The translations under genes and the position numbers were made by a program. Below, piece after piece: positions 929 to 26,501 of a stretch of 32,000 nt of DNA. Origin of the DNA: Microcystis aeruginosa NIES-2549. Its GTDB lineage: Bacteria; Cyanobacteriota; Cyanobacteriia; Cyanobacteriales; Microcystaceae. Where the stretch lies: contig NZ_CP011304.1 of the NCBI RefSeq assembly GCF_000981785.2, positions 2,220,001-2,252,000 on the forward strand. The letters run 5' to 3'. The stretch's first letter is position 1, and each line of letters begins with the position of its first letter. Under the pieces are notes generated by a model. That model had not been told where the DNA came from. It made no database searches and was given only the letters and a program-made list of their open reading frames with translations.

Positions 929-2005
929 ATGAAAAATGACGCTAAAATTATCGATCTCGTCATCCGGCTGTTTTTTCTGGGCCTGTTGTTATTTGCTGGT
1001 TTTACCCTGCTGCGTCCCTTCCTAACCATGATCCTCTGGGGAGCAATTCTAGCGATCGCTTGGTATCCGCTCTTTCTCTGGTTAAAAAAGTTACTCGCTG
1101 GCCGGGCGAAACTGGCCACAGTTCTCCTCACCCTACTTTGTCTAGGGATTATTATCGGTCCGGTGAGTGGCATTGCAGCGGTTCTGGCGGGTAATCTGCG
1201 AACGATGGCCGAGTATATCGATACTGGTGCGGCGCTGATTCCCCCTCCCCCCGCCGATGTGGCCACCTGGCCGCTGATTGGCGAAAGGATTGCCAGTCTC
1301 TGGCAGCAGGCATCGGATAACACGGGTCAATTTCTTCAACGCTTCGAGCCACAATTAAAAGAACTGGGGAAAATCTCCCTTTCCCTAGCCACCAGTACCG
1401 GTCTGACGGTGCTGAAATTTATCGCCTCGATTCTGATTGCGGCGGCCCTCACCCTCTCGGCTAAAAATCTGACTCGCCTGATGAACCGGTTAGCGGAAAA
1501 GATCGCCCCGGGTAGAGGAATCGCGCTGGCCAGTCTTACCGCCTCCACCGTCCGCAATGTTAGCCGTGGTGTTATTGGCGTTGCTATTATCCAGAGTCTT
1601 TTGATCGGCATCGGTTTAGTGACGGTGGGAACGCCTGCGGCCGGTTTATTAACTCTCCTCACCCTAATTTTGGGTATTCTGCAAATTGGCCCCGGTTTGA
1701 TTGTCTTGGGGGCGCTCATTCACGCTTGGGTAACACTACCCCATTCCATCGCCCTATTATTTACCCTCTGGATGATTCCCGCCACCCTGGTGGATAATTT
1801 CCTCAAGCCGATCTTAATGGGGCGCGGTCTGCCCATTCCTATGGTGGTGATTCTGTTGGGGGTGTTCGGGGGAGTGATCGCCTACGGGATTATCGGTTTG
1901 TTCGTCGGACCGGTTCTGCTCGGTCTCTGCTACGAGTTAGTTAGGGCTTGGATTGGCGAGGATAGCCCCGAACCAGTGGCAAATAGCCATGATGAGCCAA
2001 TCTAA
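929..2005 (+). CDS. AI-2E family transporter (PerM / UPF0118 permease)
   Basis: The ORF is 887-2005. The likely true start is ATG 929 (MKNDAKIIDL), because 887 is a TTG. It is a multi-pass hydrophobic protein with the typical C-terminal block NFLKPILMGRGLPIPMVVILLGVFGGVIAYGIIGLFVGPVLL. Antisense ORFs inside it are compositional artefacts. Confidence 0.85.
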   Translation: MKNDAKIIDLVIRLFFLGLLLFAGFTLLRPFLTMILWGAILAIAWYPLFLWLKKLLAGRAKLATVLLTLLCLGIIIGPVSGIAAVLAGNLRTMAEYIDTGAALIPPPPADVATWPLIGERIASLWQQASDNTGQFLQRFEPQLKELGKISLSLATSTGLTVLKFIASILIAAALTLSAKNLTRLMNRLAEKIAPGRGIALASLTASTVRNVSRGVIGVAIIQSLLIGIGLVTVGTPAAGLLTLLTLILGILQIGPGLIVLGALIHAWVTLPHSIALLFTLWMIPATLVDNFLKPILMGRGLPIPMVVILLGVFGGVIAYGIIGLFVGPVLLGLCYELVRAWIGEDSPEPVANSHDEPI

Positions 2006-4115: not shown

Positions 4116-4187
4116 ACAGCCCAGAGGCAGGCGTTGACAATTGACGTAGGATTAGTTAGTATGATGCTCTAATCCTACTGGGCTGTC
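4116..4187 (+). promoter_or_regulatory. Putative sigma70-type promoter with nested inverted repeats (candidate autoregulatory operator) upstream of the mazEF-like pair
   Basis: TTGACA (4134-4139), 17-nt spacer, TAGTAT (4157-4162), about 40 nt before the antitoxin ATG. A perfect 10-bp inverted repeat GTAGGATTAG (4146-4155) / CTAATCCTAC (4169-4178) straddles the -10. An outer 9-bp inverted repeat ACAGCCCAG (4116-4124) / CTGGGCTGT (4178-4186) encloses the whole promoter. Confidence 0.45.
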
Positions 4188-4204
4188 GTGGGCAGTTTAG
4201 GGCA

Positions 4205-4429
4205 ATGAGTAAGAAAGTTAGCATAACCTTAGACGACGAAGTTTTGGACTTTGTAGATCGACTAGCAAGCAATCGTAGCCGCTTTATCAATGATGTTCTC
4301 TGGCAAGAGAAGAAAAGGGTTTTTATGAAAGAGCTAGAAGATGCTTATAAAGATCAGGCCAATGATCCAGAGATGCAAGCAGAAATTTCTGTCTGGGATA
4401 TTGCAGTGGGTGATGGTCTAAATGCCTAA
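4205..4429 (+). CDS. Ribbon-helix-helix (CopG/MazE-like) antitoxin
   Basis: 74 aa. N-terminal RHH pattern KVSITLDDEVLDFVDRLASNRSRFINDVL with an acidic C-terminal tail. It overlaps the downstream PemK/MazF gene by 8 nt (ATGCCTAA). Confidence 0.75.
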   Translation: MSKKVSITLDDEVLDFVDRLASNRSRFINDVLWQEKKRVFMKELEDAYKDQANDPEMQAEISVWDIAVGDGLNA

Positions 4430-4790
4430 TGGAAGACTAACCTATAAGCGAGGAGAGATATGGTGGGTCGATCTGAAACCCGTTGTTGGTTATGAAACCG
4501 ATAAAGAACGTCCTTGTCTGATTTTACAAAACGATATTGGCAATCAAAATGGAACAACGACAATAGTTGCTCCATTGTTGCCAGGAAAAAGAACTTATCC
4601 TTTTGTTGTCAATATTACCCCGACAGTGCAGAATGGACTAGACGGAGATCGACACATCAACTTAAGTCAAATGAGGGCTGTAGATTCTCAGAGAATTAAG
4701 AATCAACAGGGTGTTTTAGAAGACGTTTATTGGGAAGAAATAGAGAAAGCAGTCTGTATTCAACTCGGTTTCAGTTTAGCTTTTAATTAG
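4422..4790 (+). CDS. mazF: Type II toxin, PemK/MazF family endoribonuclease
   Basis: 122 aa. The block RGEIWWVDLKPVVGYETDKERPCLILQNDIGNQNGTTTIVAPL is the characteristic PemK/MazF N-terminal SH3-like signature. It is translationally coupled to the upstream RHH gene. Confidence 0.9.
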   Translation: MPNGRLTYKRGEIWWVDLKPVVGYETDKERPCLILQNDIGNQNGTTTIVAPLLPGKRTYPFVVNITPTVQNGLDGDRHINLSQMRAVDSQRIKNQQGVLEDVYWEEIEKAVCIQLGFSLAFN

Positions 4791-5910: not shown

Positions 5911-6297
5911 TTACCATATTTTTTGTACGGGATAAGCATCGAAAACAGAATCAACGCCTAAAATAATTAGGTTTTCCGTAATTGCTTGAGAAATTAATAA
6001 ACGATCAAACGGGTCTTTGTGATAATAAGGTAAGGTGTCCAATGTCCAAATATGAGATAATTTCATGGGTAAAATCTGCACATCATTAATTTTAGTTTGA
6101 TCTTTAACTATTTCCGAGAGAGAAATATCTAAATTTAATTTGCCTAACTGTACCTTGATCTGTATTTCCCAGACGCTGACCAAACTCAAGAAAAGAAGAT
6201 TATTTCTATTTTCTAGTATCTCAATTGCTGATGAGGAAAGCTGAGGAGAATTCTGGGAAAACCAGATTAAAGTATGACTATCTAAGAGAATATTCAT
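5911..6297 (-). CDS. vapC: PIN-domain toxin (VapC-like)
   Basis: 128 aa. N-terminus MNILLDSHTLIWF and C-terminal block DPFDRLLISQAITENLIILGVDSVF are typical PIN acidic-residue motifs. There is a 4-nt ATGA overlap with the upstream small gene. Confidence 0.85.
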   Translation of the reverse strand: MNILLDSHTLIWFSQNSPQLSSSAIEILENRNNLLFLSLVSVWEIQIKVQLGKLNLDISLSEIVKDQTKINDVQILPMKLSHIWTLDTLPYYHKDPFDRLLISQAITENLIILGVDSVFDAYPVQKIW

Positions 6298-9234: not shown

Positions 9235-9834
9235 CTATAAAGGCAGTAATTCGGGGAAATTGAGTAATAGTTGCTCATTGGTCAATTCATCTCCCAATTG
9301 AGCAGGAGAAAAATGTACCTGAATCGCACGCAGCCGACCTTGGTAGTGGAGGTTAATTATTGATCTTAAACCATCTTCCAGGGCCTCTCGATCGGCTAGG
9401 CTAGTTTCTAAACCAGCACTCTCACCCTCGAATGCTATTGTGATCATAACAACTAAGTTATCAGTGACGGGTAAAGTTAAGGGTTCCTTTTCCCCCACTT
9501 GTGAAGACACCGATTCACTTAGGTATCTCCCCGCAGAATCGGTAAACAGTTCGTTAACGTAGTCTCCCGCTTCCCCCTCATTCCAAAAAACATCGCCCTC
9601 ATTAGCCACAGAAAACCAATAGAGGTTCATCTGCAGCAGATTTTGACAAATTTCTACTAAACCCTCTCCCATGACCTCTAAATCGCCTTCGGAATCGATC
9701 GCCTCCCGGCCGGCACGATTAAGAATACCGATCAGGGGTGCGACTTCTTGGCCGTAGAGATGCAAAAATAAGCGACAGACCACATAGCGAGTTCTACCCG
9801 CAAATTTCTTGAAGCGATCGCCTAAAGAACCCAT
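9235..9834 (-). CDS. Conserved hypothetical protein (acidic, soluble)
   Basis: A clean 199-aa ORF with no strong competing frame, co-oriented with the lipoprotein gene and 17 nt upstream of it. I do not recognise the family with confidence. Confidence 0.6.
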   Translation of the reverse strand: MGSLGDRFKKFAGRTRYVVCRLFLHLYGQEVAPLIGILNRAGREAIDSEGDLEVMGEGLVEICQNLLQMNLYWFSVANEGDVFWNEGEAGDYVNELFTDSAGRYLSESVSSQVGEKEPLTLPVTDNLVVMITIAFEGESAGLETSLADREALEDGLRSIINLHYQGRLRAIQVHFSPAQLGDELTNEQLLLNFPELLPL

Positions 9835-10036: not shown

Positions 10037-11053
10037 ATGGCTGTCCAACTACAACAAGCTTTAGTGGTTGCTTCCTATATCTTGAAACAGCGTCTAGCAG
10101 GAAAAAAGCGTTTTCCCTTAGTTTTAATGCTAGAACCCCTATTTCGCTGTAATTTAGCCTGTACTGGCTGCGGGAAGATTCAACATCCCCCGGAAATCCT
10201 CCGCAATCATCTTACCCCAGCAGAATGTTTCGCAGCGGTGGAAGAATGCGGGGTTCCCGTGGTTTCCATCCCCGGGGGCGAGCCGCTTTTACACCCACAA
10301 ATCGATGAAATTGTCAAGGGGTTAGTGGACAGAAAAAAATTCGTCTATCTGTGTACCAATGCCCTGTTATTGGAGAAAAGCCTGGATAAATTTACTCCTT
10401 CACCCTATCTTACCTTTAGTGTCCATCTGGATGGTCTCAAAGAACATCACGATCGCTGTGTGGATCGAGAGGGAGTATTCGATAAGGCAGTACAAGGGAT
10501 TAAAGCAGCGAAAGCGAGAGGTTTTCGGGTTACTACTAATACCACGGTTTTTGAAGGCACAGATGCGCGAGAAATGCAGGAATTTTTTGATTTTCTCGCT
10601 ACTTTGGGTATCGATGGCATGATGATTTCCCCGGGTTATAGTTATGAGTGGGCCCCGGATCAAGATAGTTTCTTGAAACGGGAGCAAACCAGAGCTTTAT
10701 TCCGAGAAATTCTCTCACCCTGGAAATCAGGTCAGAAAAAGTGGAATTTTAACCATAATCCTCTCTTTCTCGATTTTCTCATCGGTGAACAGGACTATGA
10801 ATGCACCCCTTGGGGTAGTCCTAGCTATAGTCTTTTAGGATGGCAAAAACCCTGTTATCTGCTCAACGAAGGTCATTACAAAAGCTTTCGGGAACTTTTA
10901 GAAGAAACCAATTGGGATAACTACGGTCGGGCCAGTGGCAATCCTCAATGTGCCGATTGTATGGTACATTGCGGCTATGAACCGACCGCGGCCATGGCAG
11001 CTTTTAAACCGGCTAATATGGGACGTGCCATGCAGAGTTTAATCGGAGTCTAA
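10037..11053 (+). CDS. hpnH: Adenosyl-hopene transferase, radical SAM (hopanoid side-chain biosynthesis)
   Basis: The ORF is 9959-11053 and the likely start is ATG 10037 ([20 protein letters not shown]). It carries the radical SAM motif [17 protein letters not shown], then [10 protein letters not shown], plus the C-terminal Cys-rich block [15 protein letters not shown] typical of HpnH. Confidence 0.88.
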
Positions 11054-11055
11054 TC

Positions 11056-12429
11056 CTAAACTGATTCTAACCAGACGGCGGGGACTTGACTAGGGCGATC
11101 GGGTAATTGCATCCACCCCATTTCGCACAGACGAATTACCGAACTTAATTTTTCTACCAAAGCGGGATCAAAACGAATCCCGCTATAATTTTGACAGCGC
11201 TCTAGGGCCTCTCCTAAATCTAGAGCTAGTCGGTCGCCTCGCGGTTGAGTTAATTCCTGAAAATAGGCTGATAATCCTAAAATTCGCGACTCTAAGCTGA
11301 TTTCTTCCCCTTTTAAGCCGTTGGGAACCCCGCTACCATCCCAGTATTCAAACTCATGGTAAATAATCTGTTGAATTGGGGCTAATTCGGGCATAGTGGC
11401 GAGTAATTGTGCGCCTAACACCGATCGATCCCGCCAAAATAACGCATTTGCTCCCTCTAACTGACTGGCACGCTGTCTAAAAACTTCGATCGGAGCCTCC
11501 GCTAGACCGATGCGGTATAATAAACCGGCTAATCGTAAGCGTCGTAATCTTAGGGTGGGTAAATCGAGCAATTGTCCCAACATTTCCGCTAAAGCGGCCA
11601 CCTGTAGGGAAGCAAGGGGATTATCAATATCTCTTTCATCGACTTTTTGAGCCATTCTTAGAAAAGCTTGTAGTTTATTAGCGGCTAAATTTTTATTTAA
11701 ACGGGATGCTTGTCCTTCTAAGTCGCTTAATTCTCGCGTTTGTCTGCTGACGGTGACTAACTGCTGTTGACTGGTTTGCAGATAGGTGACAATGCGAGAG
11801 ACTACTCCCGTTAAATCCGTGGGAATGGGATTAATATTTTGACTAATTTCCTCTTGTTGTCTGCTTAAATCGGCCGCTAGACTGGGATTATAGGGATGGA
11901 GACGCTCAATTAAGATACTAGCGGCTTTTTCGACTAAATCGCGCTCGAATGTCCATAAACCGTAGAATTTTCGCTCCGTGTCTATTTGGGGTTGACTATC
12001 GGACCGGTATTCTTCCGGGGATAACTCATGACAGAGTACCATGGAGGCGTAATCGGGGGAAAGAATGATTAAATTCCACTCATTAACCAAACTATCGCTA
12101 TTATCTAAGTTCACTAGCGAAACATTCTCTAAACTGCCGGTTTTATGCTCAGAAAAACCACTATCGGCCACGGCGGCGATCGCAATATGACGAGAAGAGC
12201 GAGCCATATCTAAATAGCGATCGGCTTCCTGTAAATACCATTTTCCCTGTTGAAAGGTGACTAAGACCAGTGGTTTATTTGTACTATCAGGGCTGCTAGT
12301 TTGCAAGATATGATCTTCAAGAGCATGACACAGGGCCACCAGGGTATTCTTAAAATAGACCCCGTAACTGCTGGGTAATCGTCCCGATGAAGCTCTTTTT
12401 AACTGTTGTAAGCTGGATTCTACGGTCAT
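11056..12429 (-). CDS. DICT sensory domain protein with a C-terminal degenerate HD-GYP-like domain
   Basis: The ORF is 11056-12438 (TTG) and the likely start is ATG 12429 (MTVESSLQQL). The N-terminal half (YFKNTLVALCHALEDHIL...LVLVTFQQGKWYLQEADRY...WNLIILSPDYASMVLCHE) resembles DICT. The C-terminal half has YHEFEYWDGSGVPNGLKGEEISLESRILGL, which is HD-GYP-like with substitutions. Confidence 0.75.
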   Translation of the reverse strand: MTVESSLQQLKRASSGRLPSSYGVYFKNTLVALCHALEDHILQTSSPDSTNKPLVLVTFQQGKWYLQEADRYLDMARSSRHIAIAAVADSGFSEHKTGSLENVSLVNLDNSDSLVNEWNLIILSPDYASMVLCHELSPEEYRSDSQPQIDTERKFYGLWTFERDLVEKAASILIERLHPYNPSLAADLSRQQEEISQNINPIPTDLTGVVSRIVTYLQTSQQQLVTVSRQTRELSDLEGQASRLNKNLAANKLQAFLRMAQKVDERDIDNPLASLQVAALAEMLGQLLDLPTLRLRRLRLAGLLYRIGLAEAPIEVFRQRASQLEGANALFWRDRSVLGAQLLATMPELAPIQQIIYHEFEYWDGSGVPNGLKGEEISLESRILGLSAYFQELTQPRGDRLALDLGEALERCQNYSGIRFDPALVEKLSSVIRLCEMGWMQLPDRPSQVPAVWLESV

Positions 12430-17936: not shown

Positions 17937-19592
17937 AATCACTTTTTGTCTGACTGTTCCGGCTCTTTCAGCTATAGCGATAATCTCGATTTCTTGACCA
18001 GAAACTCCCTTAATTACCCATTCCACCGTACAGCGATAATCTAAACCGTGAGCGAGACTACTATATACTTTATTTGATCGTCCTTCTAAGTGACCGATTT
18101 CTTGCTCTAATTTTCCCACTATTAAACTCACCTCATCGGCCAAATTTAACTTGACTTGAATGGGACGAACTATCTTTCTTTCCAGTGCTTTTTTGCTGGT
18201 ATAAGTGGGTAAAAATCCCTGATTTTCTAACTGTAAAACCAGATGATAAATACCATCGCCCTCCGACTTAAGATCGAGACGAGAGATAGCTAAAAGAGGT
18301 GACATTAAAGCATGGGCAATAGTAAACTGACATTGTTTCTCACATAAATCTGGTAAATACTTTTCTGGGGCATTTTGCCAGACATTTTTAAAGTCCCAAC
18401 CGCCAATTTCCACCTCTCCCAATTGGGGATGATCAAAACTTTGCCAATTAATAAAACCCTTTCCCGCTAAATTCTCATCATTCCAACGCTGTAACTTCAA
18501 TTCATCTTCCAAAGGATGCCAGCGAAACCATTGAATATAATCATCTTTTTCCACTGCTGCTTGGGTGGGTGCATCCCATAACTCCACCGTAAAACCATAC
18601 CAACCAAAATGATCATAACCGTAATCATCCATGGCACCGTTAGTCACTTCTTTAGGATGATAACGAAAATCGTGATAGACAGAAACGCATTCATAGCCAG
18701 TCATTGCCTTTCCCTTATCGGCAATATATTTATACATTTCTAAGTCTTCCACGGGGAAATATTCATCGGGATGGGTGCTATAGGGACGCAACATGACTGC
18801 TGAATAGGTATGATAGGTAACGAAGCCATTAATATTGGTGTTATTCGCCCAAAATTCGGCTTCTGCACGGGTTTCTGGCTCGGAAAAAGGAAAATCTCCG
18901 GCCCCCTGTTGTTCCCCTTCAGGAACCCAATAAACAGGATAATTGCGGTTAAAATCTAAACCTTCTAGGGTGGGGGCAGTGGTAAAATTATAGCCATCGT
19001 AATCGCGGATTAAACCTTCGGTGAGCAAAGTGTAAAAAGTTCCCTCAAATTCCTCCGGTTCGCGACGCACCATAATGCGAGGATCTTGTTCAGAAATTTT
19101 CCAAGCGCCACAGGTATCTTTTTGGCGCATTTGTAAGATTAAACCATCGCCGTTAATATCTTCAGGATATAGCCCCGGTTTCTCATCCGTGTGGGGATAG
19201 GGGCGAATACTCGATCGTAACATATAGGGAGTGGTGAGATATTTTTCCGCTCCATCCACGGCTAATCGCGGCAAAATATAGACAGTGTAATGGTCAAGAA
19301 GTCTGGTAATTTGGGGATTATGACCGTATTGGCTCAAAAGATGAGAGATAGTGTAGAGAGCGACGGCAGAGCCTGTTACTTCCCCCGCGTGGGTGTTAGC
19401 ATCGATCCAATAGGCAGGTTTTTCTAAATAGGGTCCTGTGGCTTGATTTGTTAGGGTAGTTAACCAGATATCTCGATTTTCGTAGGTTTTACCGATCGAA
19501 GTCAGGCTAATTAAATTAGGATAGGATGAAGCTAGGTTTTTCAGGAAAGAAACTAATTCTTGGTAGGGGTAATAGTGGCTAAAATCAAACAT
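17931..19592 (-). CDS. M14-family zinc carboxypeptidase
   Basis: The ORF is 17931-19604 (TTG) and the likely start is ATG 19592 (MFDFSHYYPYQEL). WIDANTHAGEVTGS supplies the HxxE zinc ligands, followed by LDFNRNYP and FVTYHTYS (second His region). The gene overlaps the convergent protease gene by 6 nt. Confidence 0.88.
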   Translation of the reverse strand: MFDFSHYYPYQELVSFLKNLASSYPNLISLTSIGKTYENRDIWLTTLTNQATGPYLEKPAYWIDANTHAGEVTGSAVALYTISHLLSQYGHNPQITRLLDHYTVYILPRLAVDGAEKYLTTPYMLRSSIRPYPHTDEKPGLYPEDINGDGLILQMRQKDTCGAWKISEQDPRIMVRREPEEFEGTFYTLLTEGLIRDYDGYNFTTAPTLEGLDFNRNYPVYWVPEGEQQGAGDFPFSEPETRAEAEFWANNTNINGFVTYHTYSAVMLRPYSTHPDEYFPVEDLEMYKYIADKGKAMTGYECVSVYHDFRYHPKEVTNGAMDDYGYDHFGWYGFTVELWDAPTQAAVEKDDYIQWFRWHPLEDELKLQRWNDENLAGKGFINWQSFDHPQLGEVEIGGWDFKNVWQNAPEKYLPDLCEKQCQFTIAHALMSPLLAISRLDLKSEGDGIYHLVLQLENQGFLPTYTSKKALERKIVRPIQVKLNLADEVSLIVGKLEQEIGHLEGRSNKVYSSLAHGLDYRCTVEWVIKGVSGQEIEIIAIAERAGTVRQKVIL

Positions 19593-19663
19593 AATCTTCT
19601 GCAACTAAAAAAAGGATTCTTGGGTTAATTTGACAAAATATGGGATAATAACAGTAAAAAACT

Positions 19664-19876
19664 ATGGATAGTCAAGATATCGCTCGCTACATTGAAGAAA
19701 CTAACGGTATTTCCAAGCCTTGGCTGTTGGTGCAATTGCGTCTCAAAAAACTGCAAGAACGTCGTGCCAGTCTTTCCCAACAGGAATATATCCAAGAATT
19801 GGATGATATTCAGCAAGACTTAATGAAATTGGGCGAATGGTGGCGAGGAATCGAGTCAGAAGTCTTTAAACCCTAA
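19664..19876 (+). CDS. Small hypothetical protein (70 aa, helical)
   Basis: A clean ORF with an ATG start in the gap between divergent and convergent neighbours. I do not recognise a family. ORF 19625-19816 on the opposite strand competes but looks like low-complexity hydrophobic noise. Confidence 0.5.
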   Translation: MDSQDIARYIEETNGISKPWLLVQLRLKKLQERRASLSQQEYIQELDDIQQDLMKLGEWWRGIESEVFKP

Positions 19877-20619
19877 GCGGTGGCGATAATCTGCAATACT
19901 CGCGGTAAATCCTCAAATTCGCCGACGATGCGTTTTACTGGTTGTGGCCAAACCCGGACTAAAGTGGGAATAGCAGAGACATGATTGGATTCTGCTTGTT
20001 CTGGATGCTTAGAGATATCGATCACTTTCAGGGTATAGGGGTGGTGTAATTCTCGTTCCAGAAGCTGATGGATCGATTCTAGGGTGTGCTTAGTATTGGC
20101 ATTATTACCGGAGACAAATAACCGCAAAACATAACCCTTAGGACTAGGATTACTATAGTCAGAGTCAGCAGCCATCGCCGAAGTAGCTGCGGGAAGCTCC
20201 TGATAACGGACAATCAGATCGTGGGATTGCCAAAGTTGGGGAAACTGCTGACGATAGGTTTCTAAGATAGTGGGATTAGAGGATTGTTCCTGCCAAGGTA
20301 CAGTAAACCAAGCTCGATCGTCCGTGGCGAAAATAGCATTTAATAAAGGCTGATAGCGACGGACAAGGGGATAGACTTCGGCTCTAGTATGAATACGGTG
20401 ACTGTAGGGATCTCGCCAGCGATCGATGGTAGCGGTAAAACTAGGAACTAAAAAATGGGGGGGTTCTGGCAACCCTAAAGCGGACTGGAGAGCAGTACAG
20501 AGATTCAGATGCCAATGAGTTTGTTTATCAGGATCGATACAGTAAATTAGGTCGCCCCCGGGGGTAAACAGGGCGATGCCTTTAAAAATATCGGGCAACA
20601 CAATCGCAGAAGTAGCCAC
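19873..20619 (-). CDS. KaiB-domain protein with a ~160-aa N-terminal extension (long KaiB-like)
   Basis: 248 aa with a GTG start. The C-terminal 88 aa (nt 19876-20139) read YVLRLFVSGNNANTKHTLESIHQLLERELHHPYTLKVIDISKHPEQAESNHVSAIPTLVRVWPQPVKRIVGEFED. This aligns by eye with canonical KaiB (YILKLYVAGNTPNS...[43 protein letters not shown]). Confidence 0.82.
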   Translation of the reverse strand: MATSAIVLPDIFKGIALFTPGGDLIYCIDPDKQTHWHLNLCTALQSALGLPEPPHFLVPSFTATIDRWRDPYSHRIHTRAEVYPLVRRYQPLLNAIFATDDRAWFTVPWQEQSSNPTILETYRQQFPQLWQSHDLIVRYQELPAATSAMAADSDYSNPSPKGYVLRLFVSGNNANTKHTLESIHQLLERELHHPYTLKVIDISKHPEQAESNHVSAIPTLVRVWPQPVKRIVGEFEDLPRVLQIIATA

Positions 20620-20709
20620 TTGAGGGGTTCCCGTGAAAAATAAATAGGAGCTTCTATTTTTCTAGACTACTAAACTCTTGACCCCTCAAGGATTTCCTTC
20701 AGGGTTTTT

Positions 20710-21981
20710 CTAGATTCTCCCCCGCAGCATCATCGCCATTTCATTGGGAACCGGGGACATGGCCAAGGCTACCCCCTCGCTAATCCGTCCCTTTTGATAG
20801 AGGTTAAACAGGGATTGATTAGTGGTAATCATGCCGTGGTATTCGCCGTCTTTCATTAATTCAACAATTTCGTCATTTTTGCCGCTGCGAATGTAATCTT
20901 TGACGGCCTCTGTATTGACGAGAATATCGTAAAAAGCAGCCCGTTTACCGTCGGTGGTGCGACATAAACCCTGGGAAATAATACAAACTAAAGATTCTGC
21001 GATCGCCACCCGCGTCGATTCCCGTTCCTCGGCGCTATAAAGAGTTAAAATCCGGTCAAGGGTTTTTACAGCGCTGTTGGTGTGCAGGGTTCCCAGGACT
21101 AAGTGACCGGTTTGGGCAGCTTTCAGGGCAGTATTAACGGTGGCTTTGTCCCGCATCTCCCCCACCAGAATAATATCTGGGTCTTCCCGCAAACAGGCTT
21201 TTAGGGCATTATCGAACTCCTGGGTGTGTATTCCCACTTCCCGTTGTTTGATCAAACTGCGACGACTTTCATGGACAAATTCGATCGGGTCTTCGATGGT
21301 GATAATATGTTTGGGGTGTTCTTTATTGATGTAATCGATCATGGCTGCTAGGGTGGTGGATTTCCCTGAACCCGTCGGACCGGTGATTAAAATCAATCCC
21401 TTCTGCACATCGCACACATCCCGGAAGACCATCGGTAAGCGCAATTGTTCCATAGTGGGGATTTTCATGGGAATCAGACGCAAAACCATCCCCGGACCGC
21501 GCAGACTTTCAAAGATATTAATCCGCACCCTAGCGAATTCGTACTGAGTCGCACCGTCAAATTCTAGGTCTTTTTTAAAGCGAAGGATTTCTTCTTCACC
21601 GAGCATTTCGCGTAACCAACTATAAAAAGTGTTGATGTCAATTTCAGGATAGTCGAGAATAATCATTTCGCCACGATCCCGCATCCGGGGTTGTTCTCCA
21701 ACTCCCAGGTGAACGTCCGAATAACCCCGATCAAAGGCAAACCGGATCAAATGTTCTAAGTTGGGTTGATTGGAGGCGCGACTTTCGGGAGGACTTGGAG
21801 GCGATATTTGACCATTTTGCGGCATATTTGGCACTTCTTTTGGCTGCGTCGCCACTTTTTGGCTCATTTCTTGATTTATCTCTGGTGTGGTTCCCTTGAT
21901 TAACTCCGAGGGAGGCATCGGGATGGAGGGAACCGGCAGCGGTTGTAGTCGTCGCGAGGAAGAATTGGGATTTTTATTCAT
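20710..21981 (-). CDS. pilT: Type IV pilus retraction ATPase PilT family, with a Pro/Ser/Gln-rich N-terminal extension
   Basis: The ORF runs to 21987 (TTG) and the likely start is ATG 21981 (MNKNPNSS). Motifs present are Walker A GLILITGPTGSGKSTT, ITIEDPIEF, Walker B ILVGEMRD and the His box TGHLVLGTLHTNSA. Confidence 0.92.
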   Translation of the reverse strand: MNKNPNSSSRRLQPLPVPSIPMPPSELIKGTTPEINQEMSQKVATQPKEVPNMPQNGQISPPSPPESRASNQPNLEHLIRFAFDRGYSDVHLGVGEQPRMRDRGEMIILDYPEIDINTFYSWLREMLGEEEILRFKKDLEFDGATQYEFARVRINIFESLRGPGMVLRLIPMKIPTMEQLRLPMVFRDVCDVQKGLILITGPTGSGKSTTLAAMIDYINKEHPKHIITIEDPIEFVHESRRSLIKQREVGIHTQEFDNALKACLREDPDIILVGEMRDKATVNTALKAAQTGHLVLGTLHTNSAVKTLDRILTLYSAEERESTRVAIAESLVCIISQGLCRTTDGKRAAFYDILVNTEAVKDYIRSGKNDEIVELMKDGEYHGMITTNQSLFNLYQKGRISEGVALAMSPVPNEMAMMLRGRI

Positions 21982-22085
21982 GAGCAATAGGGGTTTTTCC
22001 TTTACTATTCCCCGATTGTACTAACATCTCATCCCCAATTTCTCAATTGCTCACAGACGTTAGATTGAGGAGTAAGGATCCAGTA

Positions 22086-22194
22086 GTCTCCGAGTCAGGA
22101 GACAGGAGACTCCGAGACAGGAGACAGGAGATTATTTTTATTTATTCTTCCCACTTCCCCACTTCCCCACTTCATAATTTATAATTCATAATTC
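22086..22194. repeat. Composite intergenic repeat block: (AGGAGAC) heptamers, (CCCACTTC)x3, (ATAATTY)x3
   Basis: AGGAGAC occurs at 22097-22103, 22104-22110 and 22119-22125, with AGGAGAT at 22126-22132. GTCTCC...GGAGAC forms a palindrome at 22086-22103. CCCACTTC x3 spans 22150-22173 and ATAATTT/ATAATTC x3 spans 22174-22194. The last two blocks are the reverse complement of the (GAATTAT)n-GAAGTGGGGA module at 12482-12520. Confidence 0.9.
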
Positions 22195-22228
22195 CCCCTC
22201 TCCTATACCTTTTCAACAGGATTTAGTT

Positions 22229-22277
22229 CCGAAAATCGTTACAATGGAGGTTGAGGGCTGATGATTTTGACTACTCA
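22229..22277 (+). repeat. Left copy of a 49-bp imperfect direct repeat flanking the tcmP/DUF5131 cassette
   Basis: CCGAAAATCGTTACAATGGAGGTTGAGGGCTGATGATTTTGACTACTCA compared with the copy at 24187-24235. 45 of 49 positions are identical, in the same orientation. Confidence 0.9.
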
Positions 22278-22316
22278 AGTTTGAGCGAGTTTGACTTGAA
22301 ATATAAAAACAAAAAA

Positions 22317-23219
22317 TTATCCTTGTAATTTTAGTTTTTCGTAACGTTTAAAAATATCGTTAGTAATTTTTATAGCAGCTTCACGGTGACTGGCTAAACA
22401 CAAAGTATATAAAGCGGCATTCTTAGAATTTTTCATGATAACTGGGTTGCTAACGTAGGGAAAAAGTGTTTTTAATCTTTCTGTATATAAATCTGCTAAT
22501 CTATCGGCAGAGATTTTGTCACGACTGGCATTAGGTTCTTGATTATCAAACAAATTTAATTGAATATTTTGTGGTGGTTGGTAAATTTGCTCTAGCCAAT
22601 CTACGTTCCCCATTACTTTATTCAACTGTTCTACTACCTCTGTTTTTGGTTCTTTATCTTTTAGCAAAAGCCGAGTAACGCCCATCACCGAAAAGTTAAT
22701 AAAAATATCGCAAGCTTTAGTTTCTGCTAGTTGAGTGATAGTTTGCCAATCTACTTGTAATCCATAGGGATCTAAAAAAACAAAGGCTCGTTGAGTAAAT
22801 TTTTTCTTGAGCAATAAATTAGGCAGTATATCGTTACATAAAATCTCATTACAGTTACCGCGACGGACATGAATTTCACGGTCAGGAAACTCCTCACATA
22901 AACGTTCTAAACGTTCAGTGCGTTGACGGGAAGTATCAATAAACCAGTAACCATCAAATGGTGGTTCTGTTCTCAAAGCACGCAGGGGAGAACCATCAAT
23001 ATATCGTTGTTCATCTTCCTTCGCTGTTGGTCTCACGGAACCAGCAAAAGCGTCTATATAGTAATAAGCTTTAAGCCAAGGCTTTCCTGTGGGATTCTTG
23101 GGAGTTTTCTGATTGTTCATGATCACAGAATAAGCATTGAGATACTGAGCGAGTAAATCTAACTTATCCTCAGACCATTTACCAATAATATCTTCGCCTT
23201 CTTGGCCTCGTTGACTCAT
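22317..23219 (-). CDS. tcmP: Three-Cys-motif partner protein TcmP (Rossmann/methyltransferase-like motifs)
   Basis: 300 aa with an ATG start. WSEDKLDLLAQYLNAYSVIM, YYIDAFAGS and AFVFLDPYG match what I recall of the TcmP family (TIGR04474). It lies 14 nt downstream of the three-Cys DUF5131 gene, its defining genomic partner. Confidence 0.75.
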   Translation of the reverse strand: MSQRGQEGEDIIGKWSEDKLDLLAQYLNAYSVIMNNQKTPKNPTGKPWLKAYYYIDAFAGSVRPTAKEDEQRYIDGSPLRALRTEPPFDGYWFIDTSRQRTERLERLCEEFPDREIHVRRGNCNEILCNDILPNLLLKKKFTQRAFVFLDPYGLQVDWQTITQLAETKACDIFINFSVMGVTRLLLKDKEPKTEVVEQLNKVMGNVDWLEQIYQPPQNIQLNLFDNQEPNASRDKISADRLADLYTERLKTLFPYVSNPVIMKNSKNAALYTLCLASHREAAIKITNDIFKRYEKLKLQG

Positions 23220-23233
23220 ATCGATAACTTTGT

Positions 23234-24049
23234 TTAGGTCAATGTTAATAAATTATCTTGTTGTTTATTTTTTGAGAGTTTTTTTAGGGAGGAACCTGCT
23301 CTGATTGTCCATTTAGCATTGTGTTCGTTCCAAGCAGCAGGCATTTCATCCCAAATACGCTCATCAAGCATTCTACCACCAGCTTTGGAATAGTTACCAC
23401 CCCACTGCTTAAAGAAAAAAGCAACTTTAGATTCTCTGGTTTGAGCCAAAATTTCCCTAACCCAATCTGGCTCTATGGGACGATGTTGATAGCCTGATTC
23501 ACCGCCAACAATAACCCAATCAATCAGCGATAAATCCAGATTTAGTGGTCCTAAAAGAGGTTCACAGGAAAGAAAACGTACTTTGGCTGGTACTGTTTTT
23601 AAAGCCTCAATTCTATGGGTATATTGCTGACTTTCTACAGAGACACCCATCCAGATATTTTCCGACCATTCCAGTTTATCTGCTAAAGTTGCTAGTTTTT
23701 GAGGGCGCTTAGTCAAAATTTGATAAATATGCCAAGGAGTGTCTCGCATCACCGCAAAGATTTCCTGTAAATAGCCAAAGTCTAAATCTTCATGAAAAAG
23801 ATCACTCATCGAATTGACGAAAATTCGACTCGGTGTGCGCCATTTTTTCGGCTGTTCTAGTCTTTCTCGATGAATAGTAAAATTAAAACCTGTGGGAAAA
23901 CTTCCAGGAAAACGCATTGTTATTGCTTCTGCATAGCAATGACGACACCCCGGACTCACCTTTGTACAACCAGTGGTGGGATTCCAAGTTTTGTCCGTCC
24001 ATTCAATACCAGTTTTACTACTTGACATTTTTTTACCAGATACTTCCAT
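23234..24049 (-). CDS. Phage Gp37/Gp68 family (DUF5131) three-Cys-motif protein
   Basis: The ORF runs to 24085 (TTG). Likely starts are ATG 24049 (MEVSGKK) or ATG 24028 (MSSSKTGIEW). The family signature is present: TGIEWTDKTWNPTTGCTKVSPGCRHCYAE (C-x6-C-x2-C), FVNSMSDLF, HIYQILTKRP, FLSCEPLLGPL, WVIVGGESG and FFFKQWGG. Confidence 0.85.
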   Translation of the reverse strand: MEVSGKKMSSSKTGIEWTDKTWNPTTGCTKVSPGCRHCYAEAITMRFPGSFPTGFNFTIHRERLEQPKKWRTPSRIFVNSMSDLFHEDLDFGYLQEIFAVMRDTPWHIYQILTKRPQKLATLADKLEWSENIWMGVSVESQQYTHRIEALKTVPAKVRFLSCEPLLGPLNLDLSLIDWVIVGGESGYQHRPIEPDWVREILAQTRESKVAFFFKQWGGNYSKAGGRMLDERIWDEMPAAWNEHNAKWTIRAGSSLKKLSKNKQQDNLLTLT

Positions 24050-24186
24050 AAGAGGGTGAACTTTTAACAAAGTATTATAGTACAAAATATCTAAGTAGGA
24101 TCAAAGGCTGACAAAAATTAATGCTACTGCCTGATCTCTCCCGATCTCCCTCAGAGGCTATAGTAACTATAATCACCCCTTTAGAC

Positions 24187-24235
24187 CCCAAAATTGTTAC
24201 AATGGAGGTTTAGGGCTGATAATTTTGACTACTCA
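24187..24235 (+). repeat. Right copy of the 49-bp imperfect direct repeat
   Basis: CCCAAAATTGTTACAATGGAGGTTTAGGGCTGATAATTTTGACTACTCA. It sits 38 nt upstream of the ATG at 24274 and contains a TACAAT -10-like hexamer (24198-24203). Confidence 0.9.
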
Positions 24236-24273
24236 TTTCTGTTTGATCGTCAGTCTTAGGGGAGGTAAATACG

Positions 24274-25035
24274 ATGAATAGTCTGCCCAGTTCAGTCGAA
24301 CGGGAAAATCTAGGACAATTTTTGTTAGAAAACCTGCAAAATATTACAGATAAACTCGATCAAATTGTCACCGATTCTGATCGGATAATACTGGATAATT
24401 TACTACAAGAAACTAAGATTTTAGTTGAGCAAGTTAAGGATAACTCTAAAACTTATCAAGCAAGAGCCGATATATTTTATCAAATTAATAAATTATGGCT
24501 TCAGGTTTGGAAACAATATAAGAATGAGATTTCGGCAATAAATTTGATTGAGATTATCAATGAATTTACCGATAGAGTAACTGCCTATAATCAATTATTT
24601 ATCGGCCTTGCTCAGATCAATGAGGGAAAGACTGGTGAGGAAAAAGCCGATTTAATCAGAGTGGTGGAAGGTTCACGCATTCTCTCGGAAACCATAGATG
24701 TGTTTATTGATATGTTTGCCGATTCAGAACTAGAGCAAATTTACCAGGGAGCTAAAAATGCTCTATCGGTTTCTAATCGTACTATAACCGAATATTTCCA
24801 AGATACTGACAAATCTTTAGTCACCCAACTGAGAGCCTATTATAGTTTAATAATTTTCAGAATTCAAGAGCGATTTAATCCTAGTAATGTATCTTTAGAA
24901 ACTACTTCTCATTCCCTAACAGATGATTTAAGCGATCTTGATCCTTGGACAAGAGACTTAGTGGGGGTTGTCGATTTAGGCTCAGAAGACCCAAAAGAAT
25001 CGTATATTGATTATTTAGTGGATAAGTATCGGTGA
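24274..25035 (+). CDS. Hypothetical all-helical 253-aa protein with an antitoxin-like C-terminal tail; upstream partner of a PIN toxin
   Basis: A clean ORF with a GGAGG Shine-Dalgarno at 24260-24264. Its stop overlaps the PIN gene start (GTGA). The C-terminus GVVDLGSEDPKESYIDYLVDKYR resembles the tails of short cyanobacterial VapB-type antitoxins, but the preceding ~220 aa are extra. Confidence 0.6.
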   Translation: MNSLPSSVERENLGQFLLENLQNITDKLDQIVTDSDRIILDNLLQETKILVEQVKDNSKTYQARADIFYQINKLWLQVWKQYKNEISAINLIEIINEFTDRVTAYNQLFIGLAQINEGKTGEEKADLIRVVEGSRILSETIDVFIDMFADSELEQIYQGAKNALSVSNRTITEYFQDTDKSLVTQLRAYYSLIIFRIQERFNPSNVSLETTSHSLTDDLSDLDPWTRDLVGVVDLGSEDPKESYIDYLVDKYR

Positions 25036-25442
25036 AACGAGTCCTATTCGATAGTGATGTATTGCTAGATGTTTTGGGTAAGCGTGAACCACATTTTCCC
25101 GCATCTGTACAAGCATTAAATACAGTTAAGACAGGTAAAACTCAAGGATATATTTCCGGTCATGCCGTCACTAATATTGATTATATTTTGTCTAGAGAAA
25201 ATGGAAGAGAAAGCTCAAGAAAGTTGGTGATAAGTCTTCTAGAGAATTTGCAAGTTGCTAGGGTGACAGATGCAATAATTAGGCAAGCATTGGCAAGTCA
25301 GATGAAAGATTTTGAAGATGCCGTTACCAGTGCCGTTGCTGAATCAGAAAAGCTAGAGATAATCATAACGCGAAACCTAAGAGATTTTGCAGTTTCCCCT
25401 GTTCCCGCAATGCTACCAGTAGATTTTTTATCGATTCTTTAA
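25032..25442 (+). CDS. PIN-domain toxin (VapC-like)
   Basis: 136 aa with a GTG start. KRVLFDSDVLLDVL (first acidic residue), the later FEDAVTSAVAE, and IITRNLRDF are typical PIN motifs. Confidence 0.82.
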   Translation: MKRVLFDSDVLLDVLGKREPHFPASVQALNTVKTGKTQGYISGHAVTNIDYILSRENGRESSRKLVISLLENLQVARVTDAIIRQALASQMKDFEDAVTSAVAESEKLEIIITRNLRDFAVSPVPAMLPVDFLSIL

Positions 25443-26501
25443 CTAATGCTTCGGTAAACGTAAACCATCCGATCGCATGGGGATTAAAATCTGAGTTAAA
25501 CTGCGTAATTGTTCGGCCGTTCCCATACAAATTAATAAATCCCCGGCCATTAATTCCGTATCGCCAGTCGGTCCCCCGATTAGCGTACCATCAGCGCGAC
25601 GTATAGCCAAAACTAAGGCCCCCGATCGAGATCTTAAATGTGCTTGACTAAGACTTAAACCGACACAGGGACAAGTCCTCGGATCGATTAAAAATTCTTC
25701 CATATAAAATGATCGATCGGTTCCAGTTAAAATCCCATCGACAAAATCCATCACCTGGGGTCGTAGGGCCGCGGCCGCTAATCTTCTACCGCCGGTAATA
25801 TAGGGAGATACCACCGCATCGGCCCCGGCCCGTTGTAATTTTTGTACTGCTTCCTCGGTACTAGCCCTAGCAATGGCGCGGATTTTCGGATTAAGAGTTT
25901 TAGCAGACAAAACTGTATATAAATTCTCCGCATCGGAAGTTAAAGCGGCCACAATACAAATAGCGCGTTCGACTCCTGCCATTTGTAAAGATTTATCTAA
26001 GGTAGCATCTCCTTGAACAACAATATAATTTAATTCTTTGGCCCGATTTACCTGTAGGGGGTCTGTATCAATGACTACAAAAGGAATATTTTCGGCGTAA
26101 AATTCGATCGCCACCTGTCTGCCGGTGCGACCCAAACCACAGATGATATAGTGTTCCGATAGTCGATCGATCAAGCGTTTCTCCTGTCTCTGTTTGAGTC
26201 CCTCTTGAAAATAGCCTTGAATTAAAGCTTCGGTCAAGCGATTAACAATATAACCGATGCTGACTACTCCCATGATAATCAAAACCATTGTAAACAGTCG
26301 TCCCCGTTCACCTAGGGGATTAATTTCGCCAAAACCGACGGTAGCGAGGGTACTAATCGTCATATAGGCCGAATCTAGCCAACTCCAACCCTCGATCAGA
26401 TGATACCAAAGCGTACCCAGCAAAAACACCACGATCAGGGCAAAAATTCCCCCGATTAATTCCTGACGCAGACGACGATATTTATCTTCACTGATAGACA
26501 A
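25443..26501 (-). CDS. Two-TM potassium channel with RCK (TrkA-N/TrkA-C) gating domains, MthK-like
   Basis: 352 aa with a TTG start. It has the selectivity filter TLATVGFGE between two TM helices, the Rossmann motif IICGLGRTGRQVA and a C-terminal TrkA-C-like domain. Its stop codon abuts the PIN gene stop with a 0-nt gap. Confidence 0.88.
   Translation of the reverse strand: MSISEDKYRRLRQELIGGIFALIVVFLLGTLWYHLIEGWSWLDSAYMTISTLATVGFGEINPLGERGRLFTMVLIIMGVVSIGYIVNRLTEALIQGYFQEGLKQRQEKRLIDRLSEHYIICGLGRTGRQVAIEFYAENIPFVVIDTDPLQVNRAKELNYIVVQGDATLDKSLQMAGVERAICIVAALTSDAENLYTVLSAKTLNPKIRAIARASTEEAVQKLQRAGADAVVSPYITGGRRLAAAALRPQVMDFVDGILTGTDRSFYMEEFLIDPRTCPCVGLSLSQAHLRSRSGALVLAIRRADGTLIGGPTGDTELMAGDLLICMGTAEQLRSLTQILIPMRSDGLRLPKH

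Follow-up and report, generated by a model that had tools for sequence, protein, structure and literature searches.

A tcmP/DUF5131 cassette between direct copies of a neighboring operon leader in Microcystis: evidence for an old, probably homology-mediated insertion-duplication

The present analysis concerns a two-gene cassette, tcmP/DUF5131, in the bloom-forming cyanobacterium Microcystis aeruginosa NIES-2549 and the pair of direct repeats that brackets it. The cassette lies within a 32,000-nucleotide stretch of the chromosome (NZ_CP011304.1, positions 2,220,001 to 2,252,000), referred to here as the window, between a pilT-family ATPase gene and an operon that encodes a 253-aa protein and a PIN-domain protein. 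A preliminary description of this DNA had reported imperfect 49-nt repeats at 22229-22277 and 24187-24235, and these were confirmed, with 45 of 49 positions identical and both copies in the same orientation. Ungapped extension of the 49-mers yields a full repeat of 56 nt (50/56 identity), the copies of which start 1958 bp apart (Table 1). Between them lie only tcmP, DUF5131, and ~130 bp upstream of DUF5131, in agreement with the earlier statement that the repeats enclose nothing more than a two-gene operon and its presumed promoter region. A 40-nt degenerate core of the repeat has exactly two matches in the window and none in 100 dinucleotide-preserving shuffles. The repeat ends are sharp, since local alignments of the outer flanks beyond both ends score no higher than shuffled sequence, and the same comparison ruled out a duplication extending past the repeat at low identity. 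Furthermore, at least 10 independent assemblies, drawn from NCBI, ENA, and Logan, have the two-copy layout, which is therefore not an assembly artefact.

Table 1. Coordinates of features at the tcmP/DUF5131 locus. Positions refer to the 32,000-nt window unless a comparison contig (L001, L002, and so forth) is named.
Feature	Position	Strand	Remarks
A-type upstream allele	22103..22221		short tandem repeats GGAGACA, CCCCACTT, CATAATT
Left repeat copy	22222..22277	+	putative stranded duplicate of the 253-aa/PIN operon promoter-leader
Left junction of inserted block	22278..22316		ACTACTCA / AGTTTGAG...
tcmP (three-Cys-motif partner protein)	22317..23219	-	NCBIfam TIGR04474, E=7.2e-64; PADLOC PDC-M41A, E=9.2e-65
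DUF5131 (phage Gp37/Gp68 family)	23234..24049	-	Pfam PF07505, E=1.2e-93; PADLOC PDC-M41B, E=1.2e-103
C-up, cassette-linked upstream region	24053..24143		likely minus-strand promoter region of the DUF5131-tcmP operon
36-nt segment directly upstream of the right repeat copy	24144..24179	+	contains TATAAT
Right repeat copy	24180..24235	+	putative in-place promoter-leader of the 253-aa/PIN operon
253-aa gene (no family match) and overlapping PIN_3 gene	24274..25442	+	operon owning the leader
B-type empty-site contigs	L002, L004, L016, L017, L019, L020, L023, L024, L026, L029, L030, L031		
MITE-like insert	L003 ~2718-2911; L002 ~914-1075; L020 ~1380-1587		

The two repeat copies differ in their surroundings as well as in their variability. 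The right copy resides in the 5′ leader of the gene that begins at ATG 24274, stops 38 nt short of this start codon, and carries the TACAAT box that had been noted earlier (24198-24203), with TGn in front of it. The repeat thus holds TGnTACAAT plus other promoter-like matches, which in the right copy fall at 24194-24223, and it probably corresponds to the promoter and the first ~25 nt of the 253-aa/PIN 5′ untranslated region. The left copy sits 39 nt beyond the tcmP stop codon and is directed into the tcmP 3′ end, and the preliminary description of it as a stranded, duplicated leader fragment agrees with our comparisons. The right copy is homologous to the single copy found in every strain that lacks the cassette, and it is polymorphic across strains, with ~9 of 56 positions variable. 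Among the 10 contigs of the window clade, the left copy is invariant, whereas the right copy varies, and the left copy has three substitutions (TT at positions 6-7 and G at position 10) that are absent from every other allele.

Several searches addressed whether the repeat might be more than a leader fragment. It has no Rfam or tRNA match, nor does the window contain one, and its folding z-scores (-0.42 to +0.27) are no better than those of shuffled sequence. No terminal inverted repeats were found on the repeat, and no inverted-repeat pair in the window involves it. A structured RNA, a tRNA fragment, and a riboswitch were all rejected, given the lack of Rfam and tRNA matches, the shuffle-level folds, and the lack of covariation in 13 leader alleles. 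An apparent compensatory change between the window copies (AAAATC/GATTTT vs AAAATT/AATTTT) failed when further alleles were compared. At its 3′ end, the repeat reads GACTACTCAT (24226-24236), a sequence complementary to ATGAATAGTC (24272-24283) at the start codon of the 253-aa gene; this pairing is invariant in 13 alleles and consequently has no covariation support. Judged from the sequence, it could form a translational-control stem, which the left copy is unable to form.

The operon to which the leader belongs has a layout resembling a toxin-antitoxin pair, and exact-protein look-ups of the 253-aa protein and of PilT returned no match. The operon (window 24236-25442) is strongly variable, as the 5′ half of the 253-aa gene ranges from 84 to 99.8% identity among strains. 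In L008 (3664-4946) and L009 (2523-3805), the pair is replaced by a 277-aa gene and a PIN gene without DNA similarity to the window PIN gene, and the flanks of these two contigs are nonetheless ~99.5% identical to the window.

Both cassette proteins match the PDC-M41, TIGR04474, and PF07505 models over their full length. PDC-M41 is a candidate anti-phage system of PADLOC, the defense role of which is a database prediction. DUF5131 forms a subgroup of the radical-SAM superfamily (PMC9477430). In the papers found that name TcmP, the gene is listed next to the Hna defense gene and in prophages, and no functional study was found. The DUF5131 gene call is 271 aa in length; the true start may be ATG 24028, a start conserved in L028, where the open reading frame (ORF) begins MSSSK. 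The cassette-linked upstream region, C-up, contains a minus-strand promoter-like match, TTGTCA-17-GATATT, at 24114-24086, and it occurs in all cassette-bearing contigs and is missing from all empty sites of either type described below. An identical TcmP is encoded on at least 23 contigs, and 10 of 10 among the matches listed sit at this locus. As for its source, a phage or plasmid origin of the cassette was considered and rejected: the cassette region yielded no phage DNA match, and plasmids gave only distant DUF5131 coding matches on unrelated plasmids, with no close match among them. A 6790-nt portion of a 12-kb Logan contig (L041) is phage-like, encoding SSB, AAA_24, and a 1177-aa protein, and its DUF5131 gene, the product of which shares 85% identity with the L040 protein, is a close viral relative of the cassette gene of the Microcystis type.

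Two further variations affect tcmP itself. A hairpin at ~22313-22332 (AAAATTA-TCCTTG-TAATTTT) overlaps the tcmP stop codon; its loop reads TCCTTG in the window and is inverted (CAAGGA) in L025, L039, and L040, which alters the C-terminal residues of TcmP, and the whole hairpin is deleted in L028. L028 also carries a ~90-nt insertion (10272-10363), 86% identical to a stretch in L024, that interrupts tcmP and leaves a 249-aa ORF. In this lineage, the cassette is apparently in decay.

The repeat is specific to one Microcystis locus and is not a dispersed family. A scan for the 20-nt core in one genome per species (185,579 species) matched four contigs, all from Microcystis and with one copy each, while a scan of metagenome contigs for a 34-nt degenerate core matched 17 contigs, all at the same locus. 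These scans are sensitive to the exact 20-nt or the 34-nt degenerate core, such that copies less than ~85% identical fall below their reach. BLAST maps placed every repeat match between the pilT-family ATPase gene and the 253-aa/PIN operon, and a search tolerating up to 14 mismatches found no further copy in all of the Microcystis DNA fetched. Since all of the genome and metagenome matches map to this one locus, the possibility that the 49-mer is one of many genome-wide copies can be set aside, as can the earlier suggestion of recombination between copies of a dispersed element. It is true that MITE-like and insertion sequence (IS)-like repeats do exist in these Microcystis loci, and a short-repeat family of the MITE or REP-like kind could in principle have assembled or captured the cassette through recombination between two of its members. 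However, with one copy per genome in four Microcystis genomes, none in other genera, 17 of 17 metagenome matches at the locus, no terminal inverted repeats, shuffle-level folding, and no Rfam or tRNA match, such an origin is scarcely credible.

When the locus is compared among strains, a cassette-free counterpart is found in the interval from pilT to the K+ channel gene, where the preliminary description had proposed to look for one. In these empty strains, the left flank, one repeat copy, and the right flank run contiguously, and the flanks come in two allelic types. The A-type empty site is represented by L003 (the same as contig L015) and L022, in which the counterparts of window 18443-22277 and 24180-25451 adjoin each other, with the single copy as their overlap. 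The B-type empty site is found in ~12 contigs, which have a single repeat copy and lack window 22103-24143; here a short B-specific flank is followed by the 36 nt equivalent to window 24144-24179 and then by the one copy. The alignment indicates that the A-type allele takes the place of the B-type flank plus this 36-nt segment. The tandem repeats of the A-type flank (in L003 at ~4183-4305) vary in copy number by strain. The cassette itself occurs in both settings. The window has the cassette in an A-type site, as do 10 contigs with identical TcmP (L005-L014) and L039, whose TcmP allele is 93% identical to that of the window. L028 carries the cassette in a B-type site, where the direct repeats are 92 bp long (9416-9507 and 11452-11543, equivalent to window 24144-24235). 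Thus, all four combinations are seen, A or B flank, each with or without the cassette. The 36-nt segment is accordingly single-copy in the window, where the A flank stands in its place on the left, duplicated in L028, and present once in the B-type empties. No cargo other than tcmP/DUF5131 was found at the site in ~30 contigs, and no strain among the loci compared has a tandem leader duplication lacking the cassette.

Two sorts of contig seemed at first glance to offer other configurations and were rejected. L025 and L021 were considered as alternative original left junctions, and both proved to be termini of a secondarily inserted IS or MITE family (GGCTCTTCGGGAATTG...). L001, considered as a cassette-free donor locus, contains the C-up region without the cassette, joined to a Crp-like gene; the link breaks 37 nt past this gene in comparison with another Microcystis genome, and the contig is rearranged or chimeric. 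Termini of the IS or MITE family, GGCTCTTCGG(G/T)AATTG..., are located at L025 1-114 and 3664-3775, L021 1913-1945, and L029 12054-12090. In L025, two inverted copies enclose the entire tcmP-DUF5131-leader-253aa-PIN segment in a composite-transposon-like arrangement, and in L021 a related terminus is inserted within the first few nucleotides of the leader.

The comparison of filled and empty sites also delimits the inserted block, which corresponds to window 22278-24143 (1866 bp) and comprises tcmP, DUF5131, and ~90 bp upstream of DUF5131. At its right edge, ...GACTACTCA, the repeat meets the tcmP-distal end of this block. The left junction is shared by the window clade, L028, and L039, as is the other junction, ...CTCTCCC(G/T) / ATCTCC, and both are recognizable with substitutions in L040; L025 and L027 have only the right junction in common with these. 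Matching junctions across four diverged lineages indicate that the insertion was a single, old event. In the window, the left edge of the 56-nt repeat coincides with the breakpoint at which the A and B upstream alleles diverge, and from the aligned sequences this edge reads as the mark of an allele swap and not as an att boundary. Therefore, the original duplication would be the 92-bp version, the left 36 bp of which were replaced by the A flank. The ends of the block, AGTTTGAG... and ...CTCTCCCG, are not inverted repeats, and no informative microhomology was found at the junctions. Insertion sequences, transposons, and MITEs similarly leave a direct target duplication at both ends of the insert, but the Microcystis duplication is 56-92 bp in length (2-15 bp being typical) and is accompanied by neither terminal inverted repeats nor a transposase. 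Indeed, genuine MITE and IS insertions at the same locus look different from the cassette insertion.

The sharp ends of the duplication, together with the fact that no donor configuration was found, could be taken to indicate a non-homologous origin, either through a single replication or repair accident, such as template switching or microhomology-mediated break-induced replication, or through the cassette falling into a pre-existing tandem leader duplication. The region is certainly rearrangement-prone, with its tandem repeat arrays, MITE and IS insertions, and inverted hairpin loop. However, the junctions are devoid of informative microhomology, a tandem leader duplication without the cassette occurs in no strain, and the tandem-duplication version requires two events, in contrast to the single event of the homology-mediated explanation favored below. 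A non-homologous origin is therefore unlikely.

Several observations bear upon the age of the insertion. Within the window clade, flanks and cassette are 98-100% identical. In comparisons of the window with L025, L027, and L028, identity is 93-96% for the cassette, 95-97% for the neighboring genes, and 88-89% for pilT, while the TcmP of L040 is just 87% identical. Since the divergence of the cassette approximates that of its flanks, the cassette has been resident for about as long as the lineages have been diverging, and these values point to an insertion that happened once, long ago, with no sign of recent mobility. Subsequent exchange is suggested by L028. Through the end of its left repeat, this contig shares 98.9% identity with the empty L020, but the stretch that runs from the cassette into the 253-aa gene is 97.5% identical to L025 and only 92% identical to L020. 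As judged from these identities, such a mosaic is the kind of pattern that homologous recombination produces. Present-day empty sites may represent either the pre-insertion state or a later deletion between the repeats, as both are compatible with the data.

Direct repeats around accessory DNA are also reminiscent of the attL and attR sites of integrase-borne islands and prophages, where an empty site likewise has a single copy and the target gene regains its end from the element-side copy. Consequently, the cassette could be the remnant of a small island that integrated site-specifically into an attB within the leader, using a tyrosine or serine recombinase supplied in trans or later deleted, in which case the repeats would be attL and attR and the element-side copy would have rebuilt the promoter. 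The sharp repeats and single-copy empty sites would both be expected in this case; moreover, the right copy and the element-linked upstream region keep the promoter of the downstream operon, much as islands do at gene ends. A further point in its favor may be L040, a 2007-nt Logan contig that is a circular permutation of the cassette unit with a 28-nt overlap of its ends and thus looks as an excised circle would. It begins inside the leader copy that leads into the cassette and closes with C-up, followed by a complete leader copy and 2 nt from the start of the cassette; two other contigs are similar. L040 could represent a circular or tandem form or, equally, an assembly loop through identical repeat copies.

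The remaining evidence runs counter to site-specific integration. As the preliminary description stated, the window has no integrase or transposase, at least none with a Pfam family match among its ORFs of 100 aa or more, and neither an integrase nor a recombinase was found among the called genes at loci L005-L014 or next to the cassette in any cassette-bearing contig. The two genes nearly fill the 1.9-kb block, leaving no relic of a bigger island, and the site holds no alternative cargo. The cassette has diverged along with its flanks, with no indication of recent hopping, and, unlike the constant, reused att core of islands, the repeat measures 56 bp in the window and 92 bp in L028. The same pair also occurs elsewhere without repeats. 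TcmP homologues at 60-70% identity are widespread in cyanobacteria, and in Crocosphaera subtropica, Gloeocapsopsis dulcis, Oscillatoria sp. FACHB-1407, and Chamaesiphon minutus, DUF5131-tcmP is a bare two-gene unit with unrelated neighbors and without flanking direct repeats beyond chance or HIP1-like matches. HIP1-like palindromes are common in cyanobacteria. A long target duplication as a general trait of tcmP/DUF5131 was thus rejected, as none exists in these four species, where the sole flanking match is a 15-nt HIP1-like palindrome. Therefore, the duplication is specific to the Microcystis insertion and is not the product of a cassette-encoded mechanism. In terms of PADLOC PDC-M41, the Microcystis pair is adjacent and compact, and its context differs per genome, as in other cyanobacteria; the duplicated neighboring leader sets it apart from the four species above. 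Overall, we regard site-specific integration as quite unlikely. Of the insertion footprint originally proposed, the homology-mediated version stands in outline, with its locus-unique repeat and its empty sites, whereas the site-specific or att-like version is disfavored by the lack of a recombinase, the 92- versus 56-bp repeats, the left edge at an allele breakpoint, and the absence of repeats in the four other cyanobacteria.

Insertion-duplication offers another parallel. In naturally transformable bacteria, a single-crossover Campbell-type event or one with homology on one side leaves the insert flanked by copies of the homologous segment, and recombination between these copies removes the insert precisely, with one copy remaining. 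The Microcystis repeats are similarly copies of a native target, each is native on its outer side, and the empty sites keep one copy. By analogy, a direct duplication of a native target that is 56-92 bp long, with no recombinase and no inverted ends, would be the footprint of such an event. The Microcystis case differs in being natural and old and in the short length of the duplicated segment, and no donor circle or linear molecule has been seen, with L040 being ambiguous. On balance, we consider it probable, although far from certain, that the arrangement arose through a homology-mediated insertion-duplication of the 253-aa/PIN promoter-leader, as a single old event, with gain and loss by recombination thereafter. 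The 1.87-kb block would have joined the chromosome of an ancestor common to several Microcystis lineages by way of DNA that already bore a homologous leader beside the cassette. Recombination would have been anchored in the leader, either as a Campbell-type single crossover with a circle or with linear DNA having homology on one side only, and either route would duplicate the homologous segment on both sides of the insert. The original duplication would be the 92 bp equivalent to window 24144-24235, and in the lineage of the window the A flank would later have replaced its left 36 bp, leaving 56 bp. The right copy would keep serving the 253-aa/PIN operon, and the left copy would be a relic directed into the tcmP 3′ end. 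Afterwards, the cassette would have been inherited and swapped between strains by ordinary homologous recombination, and the direct repeats would also permit its precise loss, with one copy remaining.

A number of points weigh against this explanation. Firstly, no donor arrangement, i.e. the cassette beside a leader, without a left copy and with another left neighbor, exists among the loci fetched, and both donor candidates are secondary, as the left flank of L025 is an IS or MITE terminus and L001 is a rearranged contig. For this reason, the founding event is one that we infer, and the same applies to homology as the driver of the founding join and to the direction, gain or loss, of each present difference. 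Secondly, the sharp ends of the 92-bp duplication would fit a staggered-cut or site-specific mechanism as well. Thirdly, the two copies in L040 share lineage-specific changes, which may reflect gene conversion or selection on both copies, and the left copy is thus perhaps not a functionless relic. Lastly, none of the known leader alleles at empty sites can be read as a simple left/right hybrid of the two copies in a known cassette-bearing strain, and direct evidence of deletion between the repeats was therefore not found.

A more active variant of insertion-duplication can also be envisaged. The ~1.98-kb unit of one leader copy, tcmP/DUF5131, and C-up could behave as an integrase-free mini-island that is released as a circle by RecA-type recombination between the flanking leader copies and, once taken up by another cell, re-enters the single leader copy of any strain by a Campbell-type event. 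If this were the case, the 56-bp repeats of the window would follow from entry at an A-type site, the 92-bp repeats of L028 would follow from entry at a B-type site, and L040 would be a trace of the circular or tandem form. We view this mini-island as a rather improbable scenario. A separate question is whether selection keeps both leader copies, for example with the left copy serving as an antisense promoter over tcmP/DUF5131 or as a second operator coupling the cassette to the toxin-antitoxin-like operon. The left copy does retain TACAAT in all three sequenced versions and faces the tcmP 3′ end, and the two-copy layout persists to lineages as diverged as L040, with its shared derived changes. 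However, the left copy of the window carries substitutions of its own and no longer has the TGn extension, the leader alleles are polymorphic without covariation, and the L028 cassette persists with an interrupted tcmP, which resembles decay rather than maintenance. Such selection is very doubtful, and it concerns the present function of the copies and not their origin, such that it can be compatible with the insertion-duplication favored here.

Other features of the neighborhood are worth recording. In many strains, the PIN and K+ channel genes are separated by a MITE-like insert of ~160-200 bp with GCTGAA...TTCAGC ends and internal short tandem repeats; a 12-nt duplication (TAACTAATGCTT) flanks the insert, and window 25440-25451 is the corresponding empty site. 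Elsewhere, the window carries a MazF/PemK toxin gene (4422-4790) and a second, stand-alone PIN gene (5911-6297), while a gene at 19873-20619, adjoining pilT, encodes a 248-aa protein with a C-terminal KaiB domain.

The difference between the strains is an ordinary and old insertion/deletion polymorphism rather than a novel type of mobile element or recombination mechanism. It nevertheless provides a well-bounded example of a small candidate defense cassette coming and going in a bloom-forming, heavily recombining cyanobacterium. The cassette has no mobility genes of its own, and the duplicated promoter of its neighbor offers the homology for precise loss and possibly regain. The polymorphism should be useful in the annotation of the Microcystis pan-genome. 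Furthermore, the natural pairs with and without PDC-M41, whose flanks are ~99% identical (L028 vs L020), could be used to test the defense role of TcmP/DUF5131.

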